A stretch of 64,000 bases of DNA from Bacteroidota bacterium (GTDB taxonomy: Bacteria > Bacteroidota > Bacteroidia > UKL13-3): positions 172,077-236,076 of the forward strand of contig JAZKEF010000011.1 of assembly GCA_040387195.1 (NCBI GenBank). The letters are read 5' to 3'. The translations under genes were made by a program, and so were the position numbers. Below, in pieces: positions 14,636-58,396 of the stretch (the stretch's first letter is position 1; the number at the start of each line of letters is the position of its first letter). Under the pieces are notes generated by a model. It made no database searches and was not told the origin of the DNA. It was given only the letters and a program-made list of their open reading frames with translations.

Positions 14636-14728
14636 TCAGGGAACGAATATAGGAAGTTTGTTGAAAAGAAACGTCAGCCGGGAAGTGGTTAGTATTCTGC
14701 TAAATCAATACATTCGCATCAAATTTTT

Positions 14729-16036: not shown

Positions 16037-17130
16037 TAAGAAGTGTTTCGTCCACCACCTTCTGTTTTACGCAGTACTTTTTTATGTACCAGATCCTGGA
16101 TATCACGAAGGGCTGTATCGGGTGATGATTTGGTGAGCTTAGCCCACTTGCTGCTGGTAAGGTTTCCCTCAAATGCATCCAGCAATTTATTGAGCATCTG
16201 TTGCTGACGGTTATTGAATACCGTGGTGGCATGTGTTTCCCAAAATTTGCCCTTTCGCAATACTCCGTCAAGGGTTTGATCAGTGGCCAGGAGTGCATCC
16301 ATCAGGCATTGCATGAACCATTGTAGCCATAATGTAACATTCATTTTTCCTTGCTGGGTGCGTTCCAGCATATCGTAGTATTGATTGCGTTGCAGGCGTA
16401 TTTGTGCGCTCATGCTGTAAAAACGCTGGGTACTTTCATCGGCACGTGCCAAAAGCATATCAGTAAGCGCTCTGGCTATACGGCCATTTCCATCTTCGAA
16501 AGGATGGAGCGTAACAAACCATAAATGCGCCAGCGCAGCTTTAAGTACCAGGTCAACATCGTGGTTGGTATTAAACCACTTTAAGAATGTTGCCATTTCT
16601 TCGTTGAGCATTACTGCCGGAGGTGCTTCAAAATGTACCCGCTCTTTGCCCAACGCACCCGATATTACCTGCATCGGACCGGTTTCATCTTTGCGGTATT
16701 GACCGGTGCGCACGGTAAAGTTACCACTTTTACCCAGTGGAAATAAGTGCTTTTGCCATTCGCACAGGCGTTTTTTGGTGAGCGGTTTGTGGTATTGTTG
16801 TGTTGCATCCAGCATCATTTCAACCACACCATCTACGTTTCTATCCGAACGTACCATACCACCAATGTGAAGGCCAAGTTTACGGGCAAGTGATGATCGT
16901 ACCTGATCTGAATTTAAAAGTTCACCCTCTATCTCGCTGGTTTTCTGAATATCCAGTGTGAGTGTTTTGAGCAATGCTTCTTCACGCAACTTAAATCCCA
17001 TGGCTTGCATTTTACCCAGTATACGGCCTTGTTTATTACGGAGCTTTCCCAGCTCTACCTGTATTTCTTCGTTGCGCCAGGTAAAGTTGGGCCATTTGGG
17101 TTGTTGGTGTATGTATATTATTCTCCGCAT
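16021..17130 (-). CDS. Fic family protein with an N-terminal Fic_N domain carrying an inhibitory helix (class II), and a C-terminal winged-helix-like domain.
   Basis: Fic motif HPFEDGNGRIARAL. Inhibitory motif (S/T)xxxE(G/N) is present as TSEIEGE. Length 369 aa. Confidence 0.85.
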   Translation of the reverse strand: MRRIIYIHQQPKWPNFTWRNEEIQVELGKLRNKQGRILGKMQAMGFKLREEALLKTLTLDIQKTSEIEGELLNSDQVRSSLARKLGLHIGGMVRSDRNVDGVVEMMLDATQQYHKPLTKKRLCEWQKHLFPLGKSGNFTVRTGQYRKDETGPMQVISGALGKERVHFEAPPAVMLNEEMATFLKWFNTNHDVDLVLKAALAHLWFVTLHPFEDGNGRIARALTDMLLARADESTQRFYSMSAQIRLQRNQYYDMLERTQQGKMNVTLWLQWFMQCLMDALLATDQTLDGVLRKGKFWETHATTVFNNRQQQMLNKLLDAFEGNLTSSKWAKLTKSSPDTALRDIQDLVHKKVLRKTEGGGRNTSYEVVM

Positions 17131-17227
17131 ATCCTGCGGTAAATATACTCATATTCTCCGCATAAAAAAATTATTCTCCGCATTTTATGCGGTTAATATT
17201 GTTCGTATTCTCCGCATAAAATTGCGG
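17116..17227 (-). promoter_or_regulatory. Four direct repeats of (T)ATTCTCCGCAT on the + strand, i.e. ATGCGGAGAATA on the fic strand. Three of them lie inside CCGCAT-N3-5-(A)TGCGG palindromes. The proximal copy is the fic start codon plus its first three codons.
   Basis: Copies at about 17116-17130, 17151-17163, 17171-17183 and 17205-17217. Palindromes are ccgcatatcctgcgg, ccgcattttatgcgg and ccgcataaaattgcgg. Upstream copies create mini-ORFs MRRI*, MRRIIFLCGEYEYIYRRICGE* and MRRIRTILTA*. Confidence 0.6.
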
Positions 17228-17284: not shown

Positions 17285-17797
17285 ATGCGTAAAATTATTT
17301 TCTTAAGTATGGTATCTGTGTGGTGTGTTTGTTCGGTAAACGGGCAGGCTCTCAAAGCGTGGGTAGGTGAGTGGAAAGGTACACTCGAGCTGTATAAGCC
17401 CGATGGTTCGATAGACAGAACCGTACCTATGGATTTGCTGATAAAACCTACCGGTGATAGCTTGGCCTTGCAATGGCGTCTTACGTATAATAAGCAGGAT
17501 GTACGTGATTATATCCTTCGCACGGATGATGCAGGGGCCGGTAAATTTACGCTGGACGAAAAAAATGGAATAACCATTGATGTACGCAGGTTTGGCAATA
17601 TGCTTTTTAGCAGCTTTGATGTACAGGATTACCAGATCTCTGATAGTTATGAGATGCGGGGTGTAACCATGATCTTCACACTTACCAGTTCCAGTACCAA
17701 CCTGCATACCAAGAGCGGCAAAGGAACGGAAGAAAGCCCGAATGTAAAATCAATGCCGGTTAATGTGTTTCAACGAGCTATCCTGTTCAGGCAATAA
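17285..17797 (+). CDS. Hypothetical secreted protein, 170 aa.
   Basis: Signal peptide MRKIIFLSMVSVWCVCSVNG. No recognisable motif. Transcribed divergently from fic. Confidence 0.45.
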   Translation: MRKIIFLSMVSVWCVCSVNGQALKAWVGEWKGTLELYKPDGSIDRTVPMDLLIKPTGDSLALQWRLTYNKQDVRDYILRTDDAGAGKFTLDEKNGITIDVRRFGNMLFSSFDVQDYQISDSYEMRGVTMIFTLTSSSTNLHTKSGKGTEESPNVKSMPVNVFQRAILFRQ

Positions 17798-36074: not shown

Positions 36075-36157
36075 GATAGTTAAGGATTTGAGAATTGAGA
36101 ATTACGAATTCGGAATTTGATATTTAAGAATTTTGAATACTCAATTCCATATGTTTT

Positions 36158-39996: not shown

Positions 39997-41151
39997 TTGG
40001 AATTTCCCGCAAGCATCAAATCAAAACTACCCAAAACAGGCACTACCATTTTTAGTGTGATGACAGCCTTAGCCAATGAGCACAATGCCATCAACATGGC
40101 GCAGGGCTTTCCCGATTTTTCCTGTTCCGAAAAATTGGTGACACTCGTGAACACTTACATGAAAAAGGGATTGAACCAATATGCACCCATGCCGGGCATC
40201 TTGCCTTTGCGGGAGCGTATTGCCGAAAAAACGGAATCCCTGTATTCGGCAGTATACAATCCGGAAACGGAAATCACCATTACACCCGGAGGCACACACG
40301 CCTTATACGCAGCCATTAGCGCTGTAGTGCGCGATGGAGATGAGGTGATTGTGCTCGAACCATGTTACGATTCATATGTTCCGGCCATTGAGCTGAACGG
40401 GGGACGTCCAGTTTTTTTTGAATTGAAATTTCCCGATTACAAAGTGGATTGGAATGAGCTCAAACGGTTGGTGAGTTATAAAACCAAAATGATCATCATC
40501 AATACTCCGCACAATCCTTCGGGTACTATTCTTTCGGCTCAGGATATGCTCAAGCTGCAAAAGATTGTCGATAAAACTGAGATTGTGATTTTGAGTGATG
40601 AAGTATATGAACACATTATTTTTGATGAAATAGAGCACCAGAGTGTAGCCCGTTATCCGAAACTTGCCGAACGCAGTATTATCGTTTCATCATTCGGTAA
40701 AACCTATCATACCACAGGTTGGAAGATGGGTTATGTATTGGCTCCTACTAACTTAATGGCCGAGTTTCGCAAGGTTCACCAGTTCATGGCCTTCAGCACC
40801 AATACACCCATTCAGTATGCCCTTGCCGATTTTATCCAGGATAAGGATGCATATCTGGAGCTGGGGAAATTCTATCAGGAAAAACGTGATTACTTCCAGC
40901 AACTTATCAAAGGCTCCAAGTTTAAGGTCCTGCCTTGTGTAGGGTCCTATTTTCAATCGCTCGGGTATTCCAAAATTACCCAGGAGAATGATGCCGAATA
41001 TGCCAAGCGGTTAACCAAAGAACATAAGATTGCCAGCATTCCCATATCCTCTTTCTACCATAAAAAAATAGATAACCACGTATTGCGTTTCTGTTTCGCC
41101 AAATCGAATGAAACGCTGGAAAAAGCTGCCGAGAAAATTTGCAAAATATGA
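39997..41151 (+). CDS. PLP-dependent aminotransferase class I/II, YbdL/methionine or glutamine transaminase-like.
   Basis: NMAQGFPDF N-terminal motif. The PLP-lysine context SFGKTYHTTGWKMGY has the SxxK motif. TTG start per the track; the next ATG would remove the conserved N-terminus. Confidence 0.75.
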   Translation: MEFPASIKSKLPKTGTTIFSVMTALANEHNAINMAQGFPDFSCSEKLVTLVNTYMKKGLNQYAPMPGILPLRERIAEKTESLYSAVYNPETEITITPGGTHALYAAISAVVRDGDEVIVLEPCYDSYVPAIELNGGRPVFFELKFPDYKVDWNELKRLVSYKTKMIIINTPHNPSGTILSAQDMLKLQKIVDKTEIVILSDEVYEHIIFDEIEHQSVARYPKLAERSIIVSSFGKTYHTTGWKMGYVLAPTNLMAEFRKVHQFMAFSTNTPIQYALADFIQDKDAYLELGKFYQEKRDYFQQLIKGSKFKVLPCVGSYFQSLGYSKITQENDAEYAKRLTKEHKIASIPISSFYHKKIDNHVLRFCFAKSNETLEKAAEKICKI

Positions 41152-41930
41152 GTGACCTTACACTGACCATTATTCAAACACCCCTGCACTGGCAGGATGC
41201 TGCGCGAAACAGGGTAATGTTTTCAGAGTTGTTTTCAAAAGTTCAGCAACCCACCGCTGCAATCCTGTTGCCCGAAATGTTTTCAACCGGATTCAGCATG
41301 AATACCTCGCTGGCCGAAACCATGACAGGTGAAACGGTTACCTGGATGAAAACGGAAGCTGCACGCTTAAACGTTCCCATTGCCGGAAGTATTATGATCA
41401 GTGAAGGTGATGTGGTTGTGAATCGTTTTGTGTGGATGAATCCCGATGGAACGACCCAACAATATGACAAACGCCACCTGTTCAGGATGGCTGATGAACA
41501 CAATCATTTTACAGCCGGGACAGGTAAAATCATCATCAACTACAAAGGCTGGAATATCTGTCCGATGGTGTGTTACGATTTACGTTTTCCGGTGTGGATG
41601 CGCAGAACAACTGAATGTGACTATGATGCTATTGTGATTGTTGCCAACTGGCCGCAACGCAGAGAATCGCATTGGAGAGCATTATTGCAGGCACGGGCCA
41701 TTGAAAACCAAAGTTATGTAATTGCTGTTAACAGATCGGGGGCCGATGGAAATGATATTGAGTACAGTGGATTCAGCGGGTTGATTTCACCAAAGGGGGA
41801 GTGGATTACCGAGCTTGCACACGATTCTTTTGTGCAAAACGTTACCTTACAGAAACAAGAGGTAACCGATTGGCGAACAGCCTTCCCCGCATGGCAGGAT
41901 GCCGATGTATTTACCTTAAGGGAATTTTAA
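41148..41930 (+). CDS. Carbon-nitrogen hydrolase family omega-amidase (YafV-like).
   Basis: Nitrilase-superfamily catalytic E/K/C arrangement (...ICPMVCYDLRFP...). ATGA overlap with the aminotransferase stop. Confidence 0.7.
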   Translation: MSDLTLTIIQTPLHWQDAARNRVMFSELFSKVQQPTAAILLPEMFSTGFSMNTSLAETMTGETVTWMKTEAARLNVPIAGSIMISEGDVVVNRFVWMNPDGTTQQYDKRHLFRMADEHNHFTAGTGKIIINYKGWNICPMVCYDLRFPVWMRRTTECDYDAIVIVANWPQRRESHWRALLQARAIENQSYVIAVNRSGADGNDIEYSGFSGLISPKGEWITELAHDSFVQNVTLQKQEVTDWRTAFPAWQDADVFTLREF

Positions 41931-41970
41931 CAAAAAATTTGCAACTTTACAGACTAGGTTCGCATCCTCT

Positions 41971-42019
41971 TTAATAGTTAATAGTTAATAGTTAATAGTT
42001 AATAGTTAATAGTTAATAG
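41971..42019. repeat. Perfect heptanucleotide tandem repeat (TTAATAG)x7, equivalently (AGTTAAT)n, in the 128-nt intergenic spacer. It ends about 40 nt upstream of the DUF1573 gene ATG.
   Basis: Read directly: 7 identical copies with no interruptions. Confidence 0.95.
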
Positions 42020-42058
42020 CTGGTAAACAATAAGAAGAGATTTAATAAAAATAAGAGA

Positions 42059-43174
42059 ATGAAATACTTTGGTACATTGATATTGGTTGGAATATTGTGG
42101 TTGAATGGAATGGCTCAATCGGGAAAGAAGAATATGGGAGGCTCTATTAAGTTTGTGGAAGAGAAGTTTAATTTTGGAGAAGTAAAAGAGGAAAGGGGAG
42201 ATGTTACCCATGAATTTACATTTACCAATGTGGGTAAAGGACCGCTGCGTATTCTAAATGTACTTACAACTTGCGGTTGCACTACATCCGACTGGACACA
42301 AACAGCAATCAATCCCGGTGAAAAGGGGTATGTGAAAGCTACGTTTGATCCACGAAACAGACCCGGACGTTTTTCAAGAACCCTAACCATCATTACCAAT
42401 GGAAGTCCCGAAAGTGCGGTCTTAACCGTTGAAGGGTATGTAGGTTCGGCAAACAGGGAGATGTTGAATATGTTTCCGCACGAAAGCGGAAATTTACGCT
42501 TCTCGGCCAAAGAATTTAACCTTCAGGCACTCAAGGAAGATAAGATAGATTCACTCTGGTTGGGAGTGTATAATCCTACCAAACAAAACATGATTATCCG
42601 CGCAGCAATTTCTCCTTACCCAATGCGGGTGGAAGTGCGTAATTTATTGCTGGCACCCGAATCGGGCGATAATATCCTGATGACTTACAATGGCGCTATG
42701 ACCAAACAATTAGGCCCAAGAAAAGACACGGTTTGGTTTGTTACCAGTGATGATACTATTCCCAATAAATTTATGCTGGTTAAAGTGAATGTGGTGCAGA
42801 ACTTTGACAAACTCACTGCCGACCAAAAACTGAAAGCACCCGTTATTTCGGTGCTGAAGAATACAGCCAATATCGGTGAATTGTACCTTGGCGAAACAGG
42901 CTCTTATACCTTTGAAATAACTAATAAAGGAAAATCGGATCTGGTTATCCGCAGGCTGATGGGAGCTGATGCTTCCATTTCCGGAAAAGCATCGTCAGCA
43001 GTTGTTAAAAAGGGAGGTAAGGCCAAAATTACAGTTTCGCTCAATAGCAAAAATTTACATGGCCCGGTTGAAAAATCGTTATCTGTTATCACCAACGATC
43101 CGGCCAATAGCATCATGGTATTAAAAGTTGCAGCAAAAGTGGTGATCCCCGGTATTGAACAGATAGGCAACTAA
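42059..43174 (+). CDS. DUF1573 domain-containing secreted protein, tandem DUF1573/Ig-like.
   Basis: Signal peptide. FNFGEVKEERGDVTHEFTFTNVGKGPLRILNVLTTCGCTTSDWTQTAINPGEKGYVKATFDP matches the DUF1573 consensus, including the CGCT motif. A second degenerate copy follows. Confidence 0.8.
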   Translation: MKYFGTLILVGILWLNGMAQSGKKNMGGSIKFVEEKFNFGEVKEERGDVTHEFTFTNVGKGPLRILNVLTTCGCTTSDWTQTAINPGEKGYVKATFDPRNRPGRFSRTLTIITNGSPESAVLTVEGYVGSANREMLNMFPHESGNLRFSAKEFNLQALKEDKIDSLWLGVYNPTKQNMIIRAAISPYPMRVEVRNLLLAPESGDNILMTYNGAMTKQLGPRKDTVWFVTSDDTIPNKFMLVKVNVVQNFDKLTADQKLKAPVISVLKNTANIGELYLGETGSYTFEITNKGKSDLVIRRLMGADASISGKASSAVVKKGGKAKITVSLNSKNLHGPVEKSLSVITNDPANSIMVLKVAAKVVIPGIEQIGN

Positions 43175-43249
43175 CACTTGACTTGTACCCTGACTCTTTT
43201 TATTTTCGCAAAACGAATTCAATTAATTTTTTAAGACAGTAATCTTGTT

Positions 43250-44701
43250 ATGAAAAAACTATGGATAGTTGGCGCCCTTGCTTTTGCAAGCGGCATTTTA
43301 GGAGCATTCACCTTTCATGTATTGATGCCTAAACGTGTGGTCTTGCAACAAGCCGTGTCACAGCAATCTACGGAAACCGGAGAAGTGAATCAGGTAAACT
43401 ACAAGAATGCATTGGCATCCAGCGAGGATTTTATCAAGGCATCGCAGGTGGCAACCCCATGTGTAGTGTTTATCAAAACCGTTAGTCAACAACAGCAAAT
43501 GAGCACTGATCCGTTTTTTGATTTTTGGTCGAACATGGATTTTTTTGGCAGACGCGGACCCGTAACCAGTTCGGGGTCGGGTGTGATCATCAGCAAGGAC
43601 GGTTATATTGTAACCAATCTGCATGTGGTAAAAGATGCCGAGCAAATAGAAGTAATTACCAACAACAACAAACATTCGTACAAAGCCAAACTCATCGGCA
43701 TTGATGCTTCAACCGACTTAGCCCTTATCAAAATTGAAGGAGCCAATATGCAACACATTGTTTTCGGGAATTCGGATGATGTGAAAATTGGAGAGTGGGT
43801 ATTGGCCGTAGGTAATCCATTTAATTTAACATCAACCGTTACCGCAGGAATTGTAAGTGCGAAAGGGCGTAATATCAATATCGTAAACAGCAAGTTTCCA
43901 ATTGAATCTTTCATCCAGACCGATGCTGCCATCAATCCAGGAAACAGTGGTGGTGCATTGGTGAACACCAATGGTGAACTGGTGGGAATCAATACTGCTA
44001 TTGCCTCCAATACAGGTTCATACAATGGTTATGGATTCGCTATTCCGGTGAACATCGTTCAAAAAATTGTAAAGGATTTGGTTGAGTTTAGTGAAGTACA
44101 GCGTGGCTTTACCGGACTGGAAGTAAAAGATATTGATGCACCACTTGCCAATAAACTCAATATCAATGATAACCTGGGAGTATACGTGGTATCAGTATTG
44201 GCTGAAGGACCAAGCGATGCTGCCGGTGTGAAACCCGGTGATCTGGTAATTAAGGTGAACGAGAAACTGATTGACAGCAAAGCCATCTTCGATGAACAGA
44301 TAAGTTATACCCGCCCCGGTGATAAGGTAAAATTGACGCTGTTGCGCTCGGGTAAAGAAACAGAGCTCTACATTAAACTCATCAACCGCGAAGGTAACAC
44401 TGCCATTATGCGCAAAAATACAGTCAGCAGTCCTTCACTGGGAGCCGACTTCCAGCCGGTATCCAAAGTGGAAGCCGAAAGGTATGGAATAAAAGCCGGT
44501 ATCAAGGTAAGCAATATCAGAGGCGGAAAATTCCGCCAGATGAATATCCCTGAGGATTTTATTATTACCTCTTTCAATAAAAAGGAATACAACAATGCCG
44601 AAGAGTTTATTAAAGACTTTGACAAAACCAGAGGACAATTGTTAATCGAAGGGTTATATGCAAATGGCAGTCGTGGGTTCTATTCATTTTATACGTATTA
44701 G
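43250..44701 (+). CDS. Periplasmic serine endoprotease, DegP/HtrA/DegQ family, with PDZ domains.
   Basis: Catalytic triad context TNLHVV (His), TDLALIK (Asp), GNSGGALVN (Ser). PDZ segments follow. Confidence 0.9.
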   Translation: MKKLWIVGALAFASGILGAFTFHVLMPKRVVLQQAVSQQSTETGEVNQVNYKNALASSEDFIKASQVATPCVVFIKTVSQQQQMSTDPFFDFWSNMDFFGRRGPVTSSGSGVIISKDGYIVTNLHVVKDAEQIEVITNNNKHSYKAKLIGIDASTDLALIKIEGANMQHIVFGNSDDVKIGEWVLAVGNPFNLTSTVTAGIVSAKGRNINIVNSKFPIESFIQTDAAINPGNSGGALVNTNGELVGINTAIASNTGSYNGYGFAIPVNIVQKIVKDLVEFSEVQRGFTGLEVKDIDAPLANKLNINDNLGVYVVSVLAEGPSDAAGVKPGDLVIKVNEKLIDSKAIFDEQISYTRPGDKVKLTLLRSGKETELYIKLINREGNTAIMRKNTVSSPSLGADFQPVSKVEAERYGIKAGIKVSNIRGGKFRQMNIPEDFIITSFNKKEYNNAEEFIKDFDKTRGQLLIEGLYANGSRGFYSFYTY

Positions 44702-57224: not shown

Positions 57225-58355
57225 ATGTTGGAAGCAATAAGTATTAACGGATTTATGTTGGCGGGCGCATTGGTAGTTGTACTTCTGGTGCAGTTGTATT
57301 ACCATGTTGTTGTATTGGGAAAATTTGCTTTTCACAAGCAGCAGCCTTCCGCTAACCATAGGCAGGAGCCGGTATCCATCATCATTGCAGCACGCAATGA
57401 ATATGAAAACCTGCAAAAATATTTACCGGCCATTCTCAATCAGGACTATCCCGAATTTGAAGTAGTGGTTGTCAACCATTGCTCATGGGACAATAGCCAG
57501 CAATACCTCGAAGAACTCCAACTGCAATACAAACACCTGAAAGTATCGCAGCTTATTGAGCAGGAAAAATATCCTACCGGCAAAAAGTTTGCATTAACCA
57601 TTGGTATCAAAGCAGCCAAATACGATCAGCTGTTGTTTACAGATGCCGATTGTGAGCCTGCAAGCAATCAGTGGCTGGCATTGATGGCAGGTCGTTTTGA
57701 TAACAATGCCCAAATTGTATTGGGGTATTCTCCGTATTATAAAAAAGGAGGAATGCTTAATTTATACGACCGCTTTCAAACGGTTGTAACTGCTGTATTT
57801 TATTTTTCGTTTGCCCTTGCCGGAAATACCTTTATGGGAGTGGGCCGAAACCTTGCTTACCGCAAAGAGTTATTCTTCCGCCATAAAGGCTTTGCAAGCC
57901 ACCAGCACATCATGAGCGGTGATGATGATTTGTTTATCAACGAAGCTGCAACTCCACATAATGTGGCCATTGAATACAGTGCCGAAAGTTTTACCTGGTC
58001 GGATGCCAAGCCGAACTTTGAAGCATGGTCACGGCAAAAGTCCCGCCACATGACTACCGGCAAACATTATAAAACCAAACACAAACGTTCACTGGGTGTG
58101 TATTATGCAACCTTGTTTTTGTTTTACGGATTACTGGCGGCCACCTTGCTCGTAAGCATCGAAACCTGGCCTATTGTACTTGGTGCGTACGCATTGAGAT
58201 TGATCACACAGGTTATCGTGTATTACAACGCAACGGTAAAACTCAAGAATACATCACTCGTTTGGTCTATTCCGGTAAACGATTTTCTGTTTTGCCTGTT
58301 TATGCTATTCTACGGAACCAAAGGTTTTTTTACCCGCAATACGAAGAGCTGGTGA
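57225..58355 (+). CDS. Integral-membrane GT2 glycosyltransferase.
   Basis: N-terminal TM, GT-A core (IIIAARNEYENL, DAD in FTDADCEP), and C-terminal multi-TM region. Confidence 0.7.
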   Translation: MLEAISINGFMLAGALVVVLLVQLYYHVVVLGKFAFHKQQPSANHRQEPVSIIIAARNEYENLQKYLPAILNQDYPEFEVVVVNHCSWDNSQQYLEELQLQYKHLKVSQLIEQEKYPTGKKFALTIGIKAAKYDQLLFTDADCEPASNQWLALMAGRFDNNAQIVLGYSPYYKKGGMLNLYDRFQTVVTAVFYFSFALAGNTFMGVGRNLAYRKELFFRHKGFASHQHIMSGDDDLFINEAATPHNVAIEYSAESFTWSDAKPNFEAWSRQKSRHMTTGKHYKTKHKRSLGVYYATLFLFYGLLAATLLVSIETWPIVLGAYALRLITQVIVYYNATVKLKNTSLVWSIPVNDFLFCLFMLFYGTKGFFTRNTKSW

Positions 58356-58361
58356 GAGGAT

Positions 58362-58396
58362 AGTTAATGGTTATTAGTTATTGAGTTATGAATGTT
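58362..58396. repeat. Degenerate heptamer array AGTTAAT GGTTATT AGTTATT GAGTTAT GAATGTT, immediately 3' of the GT2 gene and about 200 nt upstream of rsmG.
   Basis: Clear 7-nt periodicity. The unit is the same as in the perfect (AGTTAAT)n array at 41971. It also contains AGTTATTGAGTTAT, which is the reverse complement of the 49087 octamer repeat. Confidence 0.7.

Follow-up and report, generated by a model that had tools for sequence, protein, structure and literature searches.

A perfect heptamer microsatellite in the probable 5′ leader of a DUF1573 gene from an uncultured lineage of Bacteroidota

RESULTS

A perfect array of seven TTAATAG units lies at positions 41971–42019 on the forward strand of the 64,000-nt stretch of Bacteroidota DNA that we analyzed (the window), between an amidohydrolase gene and a gene for a protein with two DUF1573 domains, and downstream of a promoter-like block that is conserved among relatives. 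With modest confidence, we read it as a lineage-specific microsatellite of the known intergenic heptamer kind, situated in the leader of the DUF1573 gene, which would have at most a graded effect on expression and would not act as an on/off promoter switch. The array would have arisen, and would stay homogeneous, through replication slippage, with the −7 box of the conserved promoter 8 nt upstream of it.

The seven units follow one another without interruption (TRF: period 7, 7.0 copies, 100% matches, score 98), confirming the original prediction of a perfect (TTAATAG)x7 tract upstream of the DUF1573 gene. The array is the best perfect array in the window and has the second-highest TRF score there, the highest (154) belonging to an imperfect 53-nt x2 repeat at 17117–17221. 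Its units are tandem, direct, 7 nt long and forward, in intergenic DNA close to a start codon. The spacer measures 128 nt, from the stop codon of the CN_hydrolase gene (41928–41930) to the DUF1573 ATG at 42059, and 39 nt separate the end of the array from that ATG. The array thus accounts for 49 of 128 nt (38%) and not, as had been stated, for most of the spacer. Its A+U content is 86%, and each of the three forward frames contains stop codons. The pattern TAG-N4-TAG-N4-TAG has five matches in the window, all within the array (0.12 expected from shuffles), and 0.01 matches would be expected by chance for three TTAWTAG units with up to three mismatches. No other long period-7 array was found in the window or in any fetched locus. 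We conclude that the array, delimited by TRF, by its letters and by orthologous arrays in loci L001, L005 and L007–L010, is real, far beyond chance and slippage-shaped.

The sequence comes from a metagenome-assembled genome (MAG), and the Logan contigs that reach the array end inside it, both of which could point to an assembly artifact or a collapsed repeat. The array is nevertheless not an artifact of assembly, since the same array is present in independent NCBI, JGI, ENA and Logan assemblies, the first three of which contain full arrays with both flanks. The three Logan contigs (L005, L009 and L010) each end exactly 30 nt into the array (positions 1–30). That length equals the k−1 overlap that a de Bruijn graph with k=31 leaves where a tandem repeat exceeds k, and such a graph does this at a real repeat. 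These ends are therefore an assembly signature and carry no information on biological length heterogeneity. We regard an artifactual origin as extremely improbable. In practice, breaks at the array should be expected in k=31 assemblies.

A protein search with the DUF1573 sequence, which is 100% identical to a protein from an NCBI Bacteroidota MAG, returned six further clusters at 72–77% identity before dropping to 57%, and the DNA of all of them was fetched. One close relative was found in a scan of genome contigs, and a scan of metagenome contigs gave only homologs at 31% identity, which lack the array. Wherever it was visible, the gene order was the same: methionine aminotransferase, amidohydrolase, spacer, DUF1573, HtrA-family protease. 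The (TTAATAG)x7 of the window (DUF1573 identity 100%) has a counterpart in L001 (77%) at exactly the same place in an ungapped alignment, with 6.9 copies of TTATTAG in which every unit differs from the window’s at the same position. The identical loci L007 and L008 (74%) carry (TTAATAG)x6.6, and the contigs of L009 and L010, from the same species (74%), begin inside the array and retain at least 4.3 copies. The L005 contig (77%) also begins inside the array and shows at least 4.3 TTAATAG copies followed by an L001-like edge unit, TTATTGG. A decayed remnant of ~2 copies (TTGTGAG TTATTAG TTGG) is present in L006 (76%), and the array is absent from L011 (75%), L012 (72%) and L013–L016 (57%, spacer of 62 nt) despite identical synteny.

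As assembled, copy number between species is therefore 7, 6.9, 6.6, at least 4.3, ~2 (decayed) and, in three lineages, 0; seven units is the maximum among orthologs, and variation was seen only between species. The array is labile and dispensable across relatives. Same-position arrays, each internally perfect, occur in four relatives whose synonymous sites are nearly saturated (identity at fourfold-degenerate sites between lineages is 0.29–0.50, close to saturation). Perfect arrays, concerted change of the unit and an older variant at the array edge together are a signature of ongoing slippage turnover: TTATTAG in every unit of L001 indicates concerted evolution by slippage, and the TTAATAG body of the L005 array with its older TTATTGG edge unit is as expected of such turnover. 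This internal perfection, the concerted unit change and the range of 0–7 copies between species agree with the earlier view that the tract is prone to slippage and lies in a regulatory region. On a tree of the DUF1573 and HtrA proteins (L006 with L005, joined in turn by the window, L001 and L011, and L012 with L008; outgroup L014) the array states are patchy, from which it follows that the array either originated once and was lost or decayed three times, or expanded repeatedly from one and the same seed.

All seven distinct orthologous spacers, whether or not they contain the array and down to 57% protein identity, retain a promoter-like block, TTTGCAAC-N9-TAGGTTCGCATC, which is found at 41938–41966 on the forward strand of the window (consensus across orthologs, TTTGCAAC-N9-TA-nn-TT-(C/T/G)-GCATC). 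The block, which follows the amidohydrolase stop codon by 7 nt, is wholly upstream of the array and ends 4 nt before it, and a −7-type box within the block, TAGGTTCG at 41955–41962, ends 8 nt before it; the sequence from the array to the ATG is poorly conserved among orthologs. The box is a near match to TAnnTTTG, the −7 consensus of Bacteroidota, which occupies −12 to −5 in F. johnsoniae (PMC6847099, PMC9723704). The pattern TAnnTTCGCA occurs five times in the window, and four of these occurrences, at 14709, 41955, 43201 (htrA) and 57210, are intergenic, sense-oriented and 15–104 nt upstream of an ATG. Because the block is conserved and the TAnnTTCGCA box stands in promoter position at four of its five occurrences, we infer that the block is the DUF1573 promoter. 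Applying the −12 to −5 placement of the −7 box (PMC6847099) to 41955–41962 gives a predicted transcription start zone at 41964–41970 (forward strand), with a putative +1 at ~41967. The variant TAnnTTCGCA, with C for the consensus T, may be the preferred box of the lineage or the site of one particular sigma factor.

The box is atypical: position −6 is C where the consensus has T, and the “nn” positions are GG. F. johnsoniae promoters seldom have C at −6 or G at “nn” (PMC6847099). Taken whole, the block occurs only once in the window. It does not fit the canonical TTTG-N19-21-TAnnTTTG architecture, as the TTTG is only 13 nt upstream. An ECF-type reading, TGCAAC-N15-CGCATC, was considered because of the htrA gene downstream; its CG is not conserved (TGCA in L007, GGCA in L014). 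Such a reading is possible, and it would still put the transcription start at the 5′ edge of the array. A stem-loop within the block was weak as a candidate terminator or RNA element (−5.3 kcal/mol, z = −1.2), and a sigma-70/terminator scan of the spacer, using a model that does not cover Bacteroidota promoters, returned nothing relevant. Instead of starting at ~41967, transcription may run through from the amidase operon upstream or begin within the array.

Promoter-spacer switches are exemplified by the TA repeats between the −35 and −10 elements of H. influenzae hif and by poly-G/C tracts in Neisseria promoters; their tracts lie between or next to the core hexamers, where a change of 1–2 bp matters. 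[quoted passage not shown] The array does share with these switches a perfect, slippage-prone tract in the upstream region, but at 49 bp it is far longer than the ~19–21 bp that separate −33 and −7 elements (PMC6847099), and it lies downstream of the conserved −7-type box, neither between core elements nor overlapping them. The only conserved promoter-like block is entirely upstream, no conserved −7-like box was found downstream of the array in the orthologs, and the gap of only ~19–22 nt between array and ATG in L007 leaves no room for a downstream promoter. Moreover, the block and the gene are both retained in every ortholog, although copy numbers range from 0 to 7. We therefore consider a phase-variable promoter very improbable. 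Of the features of a repeat-mediated contingency locus, the array shows the slippage-prone repeat, but neither a position that would set promoter spacing nor a gene of the variable surface, host-interaction or restriction-modification type.

Under the reading that we prefer, a leader microsatellite, the array most likely corresponds to nt +5 to +53 of a DUF1573 leader of ~92 nt, judging from the predicted start. With a start near 41967, it would be transcribed as (UUAAUAG)7 and would lengthen an AU-rich, unstructured leader from ~43 to ~92 nt, introducing its stop codons in all three frames. Box-to-ATG distances in the relatives that lack the array imply leaders of ~26–60 nt. Downstream of the array, an A-rich 3′ leader and translation initiation region with A at −3 extends over 42020–42058 (forward strand), and its last ~17 nt before the ATG are common to the window and L005. 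The leader RNA folds no better than shuffled sequences (MFE −13.6 versus a mean of −15.7 kcal/mol, z = +0.73). Neither strand of the array, from the window or from L001, formed a stable fold when treated as single-stranded DNA (MFE 0), and no propensity for hairpins or slipped structures was found. A search of the whole window against Rfam at gathering thresholds returned no match. Translation initiation in Bacteroidota relies on leaders that are A-rich and unstructured, and not on Shine-Dalgarno pairing (PMC6847099), so 49 nt of additional AU-rich RNA is compatible with normal expression and might modulate it mildly. Since a change in copy number would alter leader length only, any effect on expression would be graded, through translation efficiency or mRNA stability, and it would probably be small because relatives do without the array.

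The gene downstream of the array (42059–43174, forward strand) encodes a 371-aa protein with an N-terminal signal peptide, two DUF1573 domains and a CGC motif, as annotated with Pfam and NCBIfam; Pfam assigns CN_hydrolase to the gene upstream. The original prediction had viewed the product as a plausible surface antigen. Its signal peptide is of type I and lacks a lipobox Cys, and the Pfam and NCBIfam searches matched only DUF1573/Ig-like, OS_HP2 and choice-of-anchor D models, with no T9SS C-terminal or other surface-sorting domain. One copy of the gene is present, always ahead of htrA, and its orthologs are 72–77% identical. The first DUF1573 domain scores 89.8 bits against the NCBIfam OS_HP2 (seleno)protein model, short of its cutoff of 100. 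A UGC motif is given for DUF1573 selenoproteins in a review (PMC9312934), and the CGC at residues ~70–77 (TTCGCTTS) may be the Cys form of that redox motif. A PDB sequence search with the protein gave no match, and a literature search on its function yielded only a selenoprotein-family listing. Taken together, the signal peptide, domain content, single copy, htrA synteny and (seleno)protein redox kinship are better suited to a periplasmic protein with a housekeeping or redox role than to a variable surface antigen.

An HtrA/DegP-family periplasmic serine protease gene, identified by domain search and by its conserved synteny with DUF1573, follows at 43250–44701 (forward strand), preceded by a separate conserved promoter-like block, TTG-N20-TATTTTCGCA, at 43178–43210 (forward strand), which we recognized by spacer comparison and by its TAnnTTCGCA box. 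This block of the DUF1573-htrA spacer, cTTGACTTg-N-cTTTTTATTTTCGCa, stands in the same place in L001, L005–L007, L011 and L012. Given its own promoter-like block, htrA is probably transcribed at least partly alone. Upstream of the array, the omega-amidase-like CN_hydrolase gene (41148–41930, forward strand; Pfam, NCBIfam) matches the NCBIfam PRK10438 amidohydrolase equivalog above cutoff. The methionine aminotransferase and PRK10438-type amidohydrolase genes (39997–41930) overlap by a few bases and form a conserved pair in all relatives, which is probably an operon separate from DUF1573.

DISCUSSION

The closest likeness to the DUF1573 array is the TAACTGA type of intergenic heptamer direct repeat, which lies shortly before start codons in Beggiatoaceae, cyanobacteria and five Bacteroidetes (MacGregor 2015, PMC4679880). 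Close relatives lack these repeats and contigs break inside them; translational regulation has been proposed as their function (PMC4679880). They form part of what Mrazek et al. termed “long simple sequence repeats” (2007, as cited in PMC4679880), and those authors are also cited there for heptamers being the commonest class of such repeats in prokaryotes. In both cases 7-nt units stand in direct tandem in forward orientation in intergenic DNA, ~1–43 nt from a start codon, the units contain stop codons, the genomes do not use Shine-Dalgarno sequences, and Bacteroidetes are among the phyla concerned. In both, too, relatives with the same gene order have shorter, repeat-free spacers (here L011, L012 and L013–L016, with a vestige in L006), and contigs break within arrays. 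The unit is different, TTAATAG or TTATTAG here, matching TAACTGA at four of seven positions in the best register, and TAACTGA-type repeats form many sets per genome, whereas the 64-kb window holds one long and one degenerate array. What the present case adds is a documented orthologous history of gain, homogenization, decay and loss, together with the position of the array relative to a conserved promoter.

Repeats in a leader can also act as contingency loci. The (ATCTTTC)n tracts of H. influenzae hmw1A and hmw2A lie in the 5′ UTR and act through a long hairpin and RNase III (PMC12721329, PMC8262952, PMC2424069), with expression falling in inverse proportion to copy number; natural tracts have at least 11 repeats, as described in PMC12721329. 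The AGAT repeat in the 5′ UTR of Moraxella catarrhalis UspA2 likewise lies between promoter and start codon and differs in copy number between strains or lineages, as related in PMC4679880. By analogy, high-frequency copy-number variation within populations could tune expression of DUF1573, or of DUF1573 and htrA, as a 5′ UTR rheostat. The array has features in common with such loci: its heptamer tract is perfect and separates the predicted promoter from the ATG, its unit and copy number turn over in evolution, and transcribed heptamer repeats are described as working in this way (PMC12721329, PMC4679880). As with the HMW tracts, its length would act on leader RNA and not on promoter spacing, transcription being predicted in our case. 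The differences are nonetheless considerable. The array has seven copies, against the 11 or more given for natural HMW tracts (PMC12721329), and the G-rich partner that creates the long HMW hairpin for RNase III has no equivalent here, as no complementary hairpin partner for an RNase III-type long hairpin was found and the predicted leader folds no better than shuffles. UspA2, for its part, has a tetranucleotide repeat of 6–23 copies with an experimentally shown expression optimum and encodes a surface serum-resistance protein (Attia and Hansen 2006, via PMC4679880). The hmw genes encode variable adhesins of a host-adapted pathogen, whereas the gene considered here is a conserved one of periplasmic, housekeeping type in an environmental uncultured bacterium, and three related lineages lack the array. 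L007 and L008, from two different samples, also have equal counts, which says little because the two sequences are identical over 2638 nt. We find a rheostat of this kind unlikely.

The conservation of the unit itself requires comment. The window’s unit differs from that of L005 and L007 at 0 of 7 positions and from that of L001 at 1 of 7, and copy number clusters at 6.6–7 in three lineages. Neutral concerted evolution should let the unit drift at approximately the neutral rate, and the combination of unit conservation and copy-number clustering hints at selection rather than near-neutrality. When the DUF1573-htrA spacer serves as a noncoding control (identity 0.58–0.72, with a conserved promoter lying within that spacer), the excess is no more than suggestive, and only two unit variants, TTAATAG and TTATTAG, exist for judging constraint.

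Solely from this conservation of unit and copy number beyond neutral expectation comes the idea that the array is a selected cis-regulatory module, in which seven UAG-N4 (or TTAWTAG) sites with heptad periodicity would be bound cooperatively by an oligomeric protein, either on the DUF1573 mRNA, whose extreme 5′ end would form a (UAG-N4)x7 platform, or on the DNA at +5 to +53. On RNA, the candidate binder would be an S1/Csp-type OB-fold protein or a HutP/TRAP-like ring; on DNA, the bound protein would act as a roadblock, like the omega repressor. The omega repressor acts on 7-bp heptads, and HutP and TRAP form rings that bind RNA. Besides the clustering at 6.6–7 copies in three deeply diverged lineages, the idea is favored by the sole unit change, A to T, which falls in the N4 part and keeps UAG, by the computed lack of structure of the tract as RNA and as single-stranded DNA, and by a second, degenerate TTAWTAG-like array at 58361–58389. 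Binding of S1, Csp or CsrA was moreover proposed by MacGregor for TAACTGA heptamer leaders (PMC4679880). Against it, L006, L011, L012 and L013–L016 dispense with the array, the unit conservation is judged from two variants against the spacer control, and the second array is not conserved in L017, the one relative whose DNA was seen there, the other relative having a spacer of 64 nt. Both the cooperative platform and the selected module that it implies are, in our estimation, quite unlikely.

Orthologs with 0, ~2, 6.6, 6.9 and 7 copies behind the same conserved promoter are a natural series for testing heptamer leader repeats, whose role has been debatable from their first description onward. 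An array that tunes expression would be a rare instance of repeat-based regulation in a free-living, uncultured lineage of Bacteroidota, acting through leader RNA in a phylum without Shine-Dalgarno-based initiation; were it a protein-binding platform, it would give the Bacteroidota an equivalent of the heptamer leader repeats seen in Beggiatoaceae and cyanobacteria. A neutral array would offer a clean view of how a bacterial microsatellite is born, is homogenized, decays and is lost.

Several other repeats were observed. The degenerate heptamer array at 58361–58389, of the same unit family (TAGTTAA TGGTTAT TAGTTAT TGAGTTAT), starts 6 nt past the stop codon of a gene for a GT2 glycosyltransferase (57225–58355), with rsmG ~210 nt downstream. 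Besides the perfect array, no further site in the window matches three TTAWTAG units with up to three mismatches (0.01 expected). We considered the degenerate array as evidence of a TTAWTAG array family and set this aside: the orthologous L017 spacer lacks it, and in a second relative, for which gene positions only were available, the spacer is 64 nt. At 36075–36146 there is an intergenic, AT-rich imperfect tandem repeat of period 22/29 with GAGAATT/AAGAATT/CGAATT sub-units. In L003, an unrelated metagenome contig, a 95-nt x2 tandem repeat (87% matches) at 2801–2991 lies directly upstream of a distant DUF1573 homolog (31% identity). Finally, four copies of ATTCTCCGCAT(A/T), ~25–28 nt apart, are found at 17117–17225 (TRF: 53-nt x2), in the spacer that precedes a gene starting at 17285. 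Two of these copies form small hairpins, CCGCATATCCTGCGG and CCGCATTTTATGCGG, and the whole looks like an array of operator or terminator-like sites.
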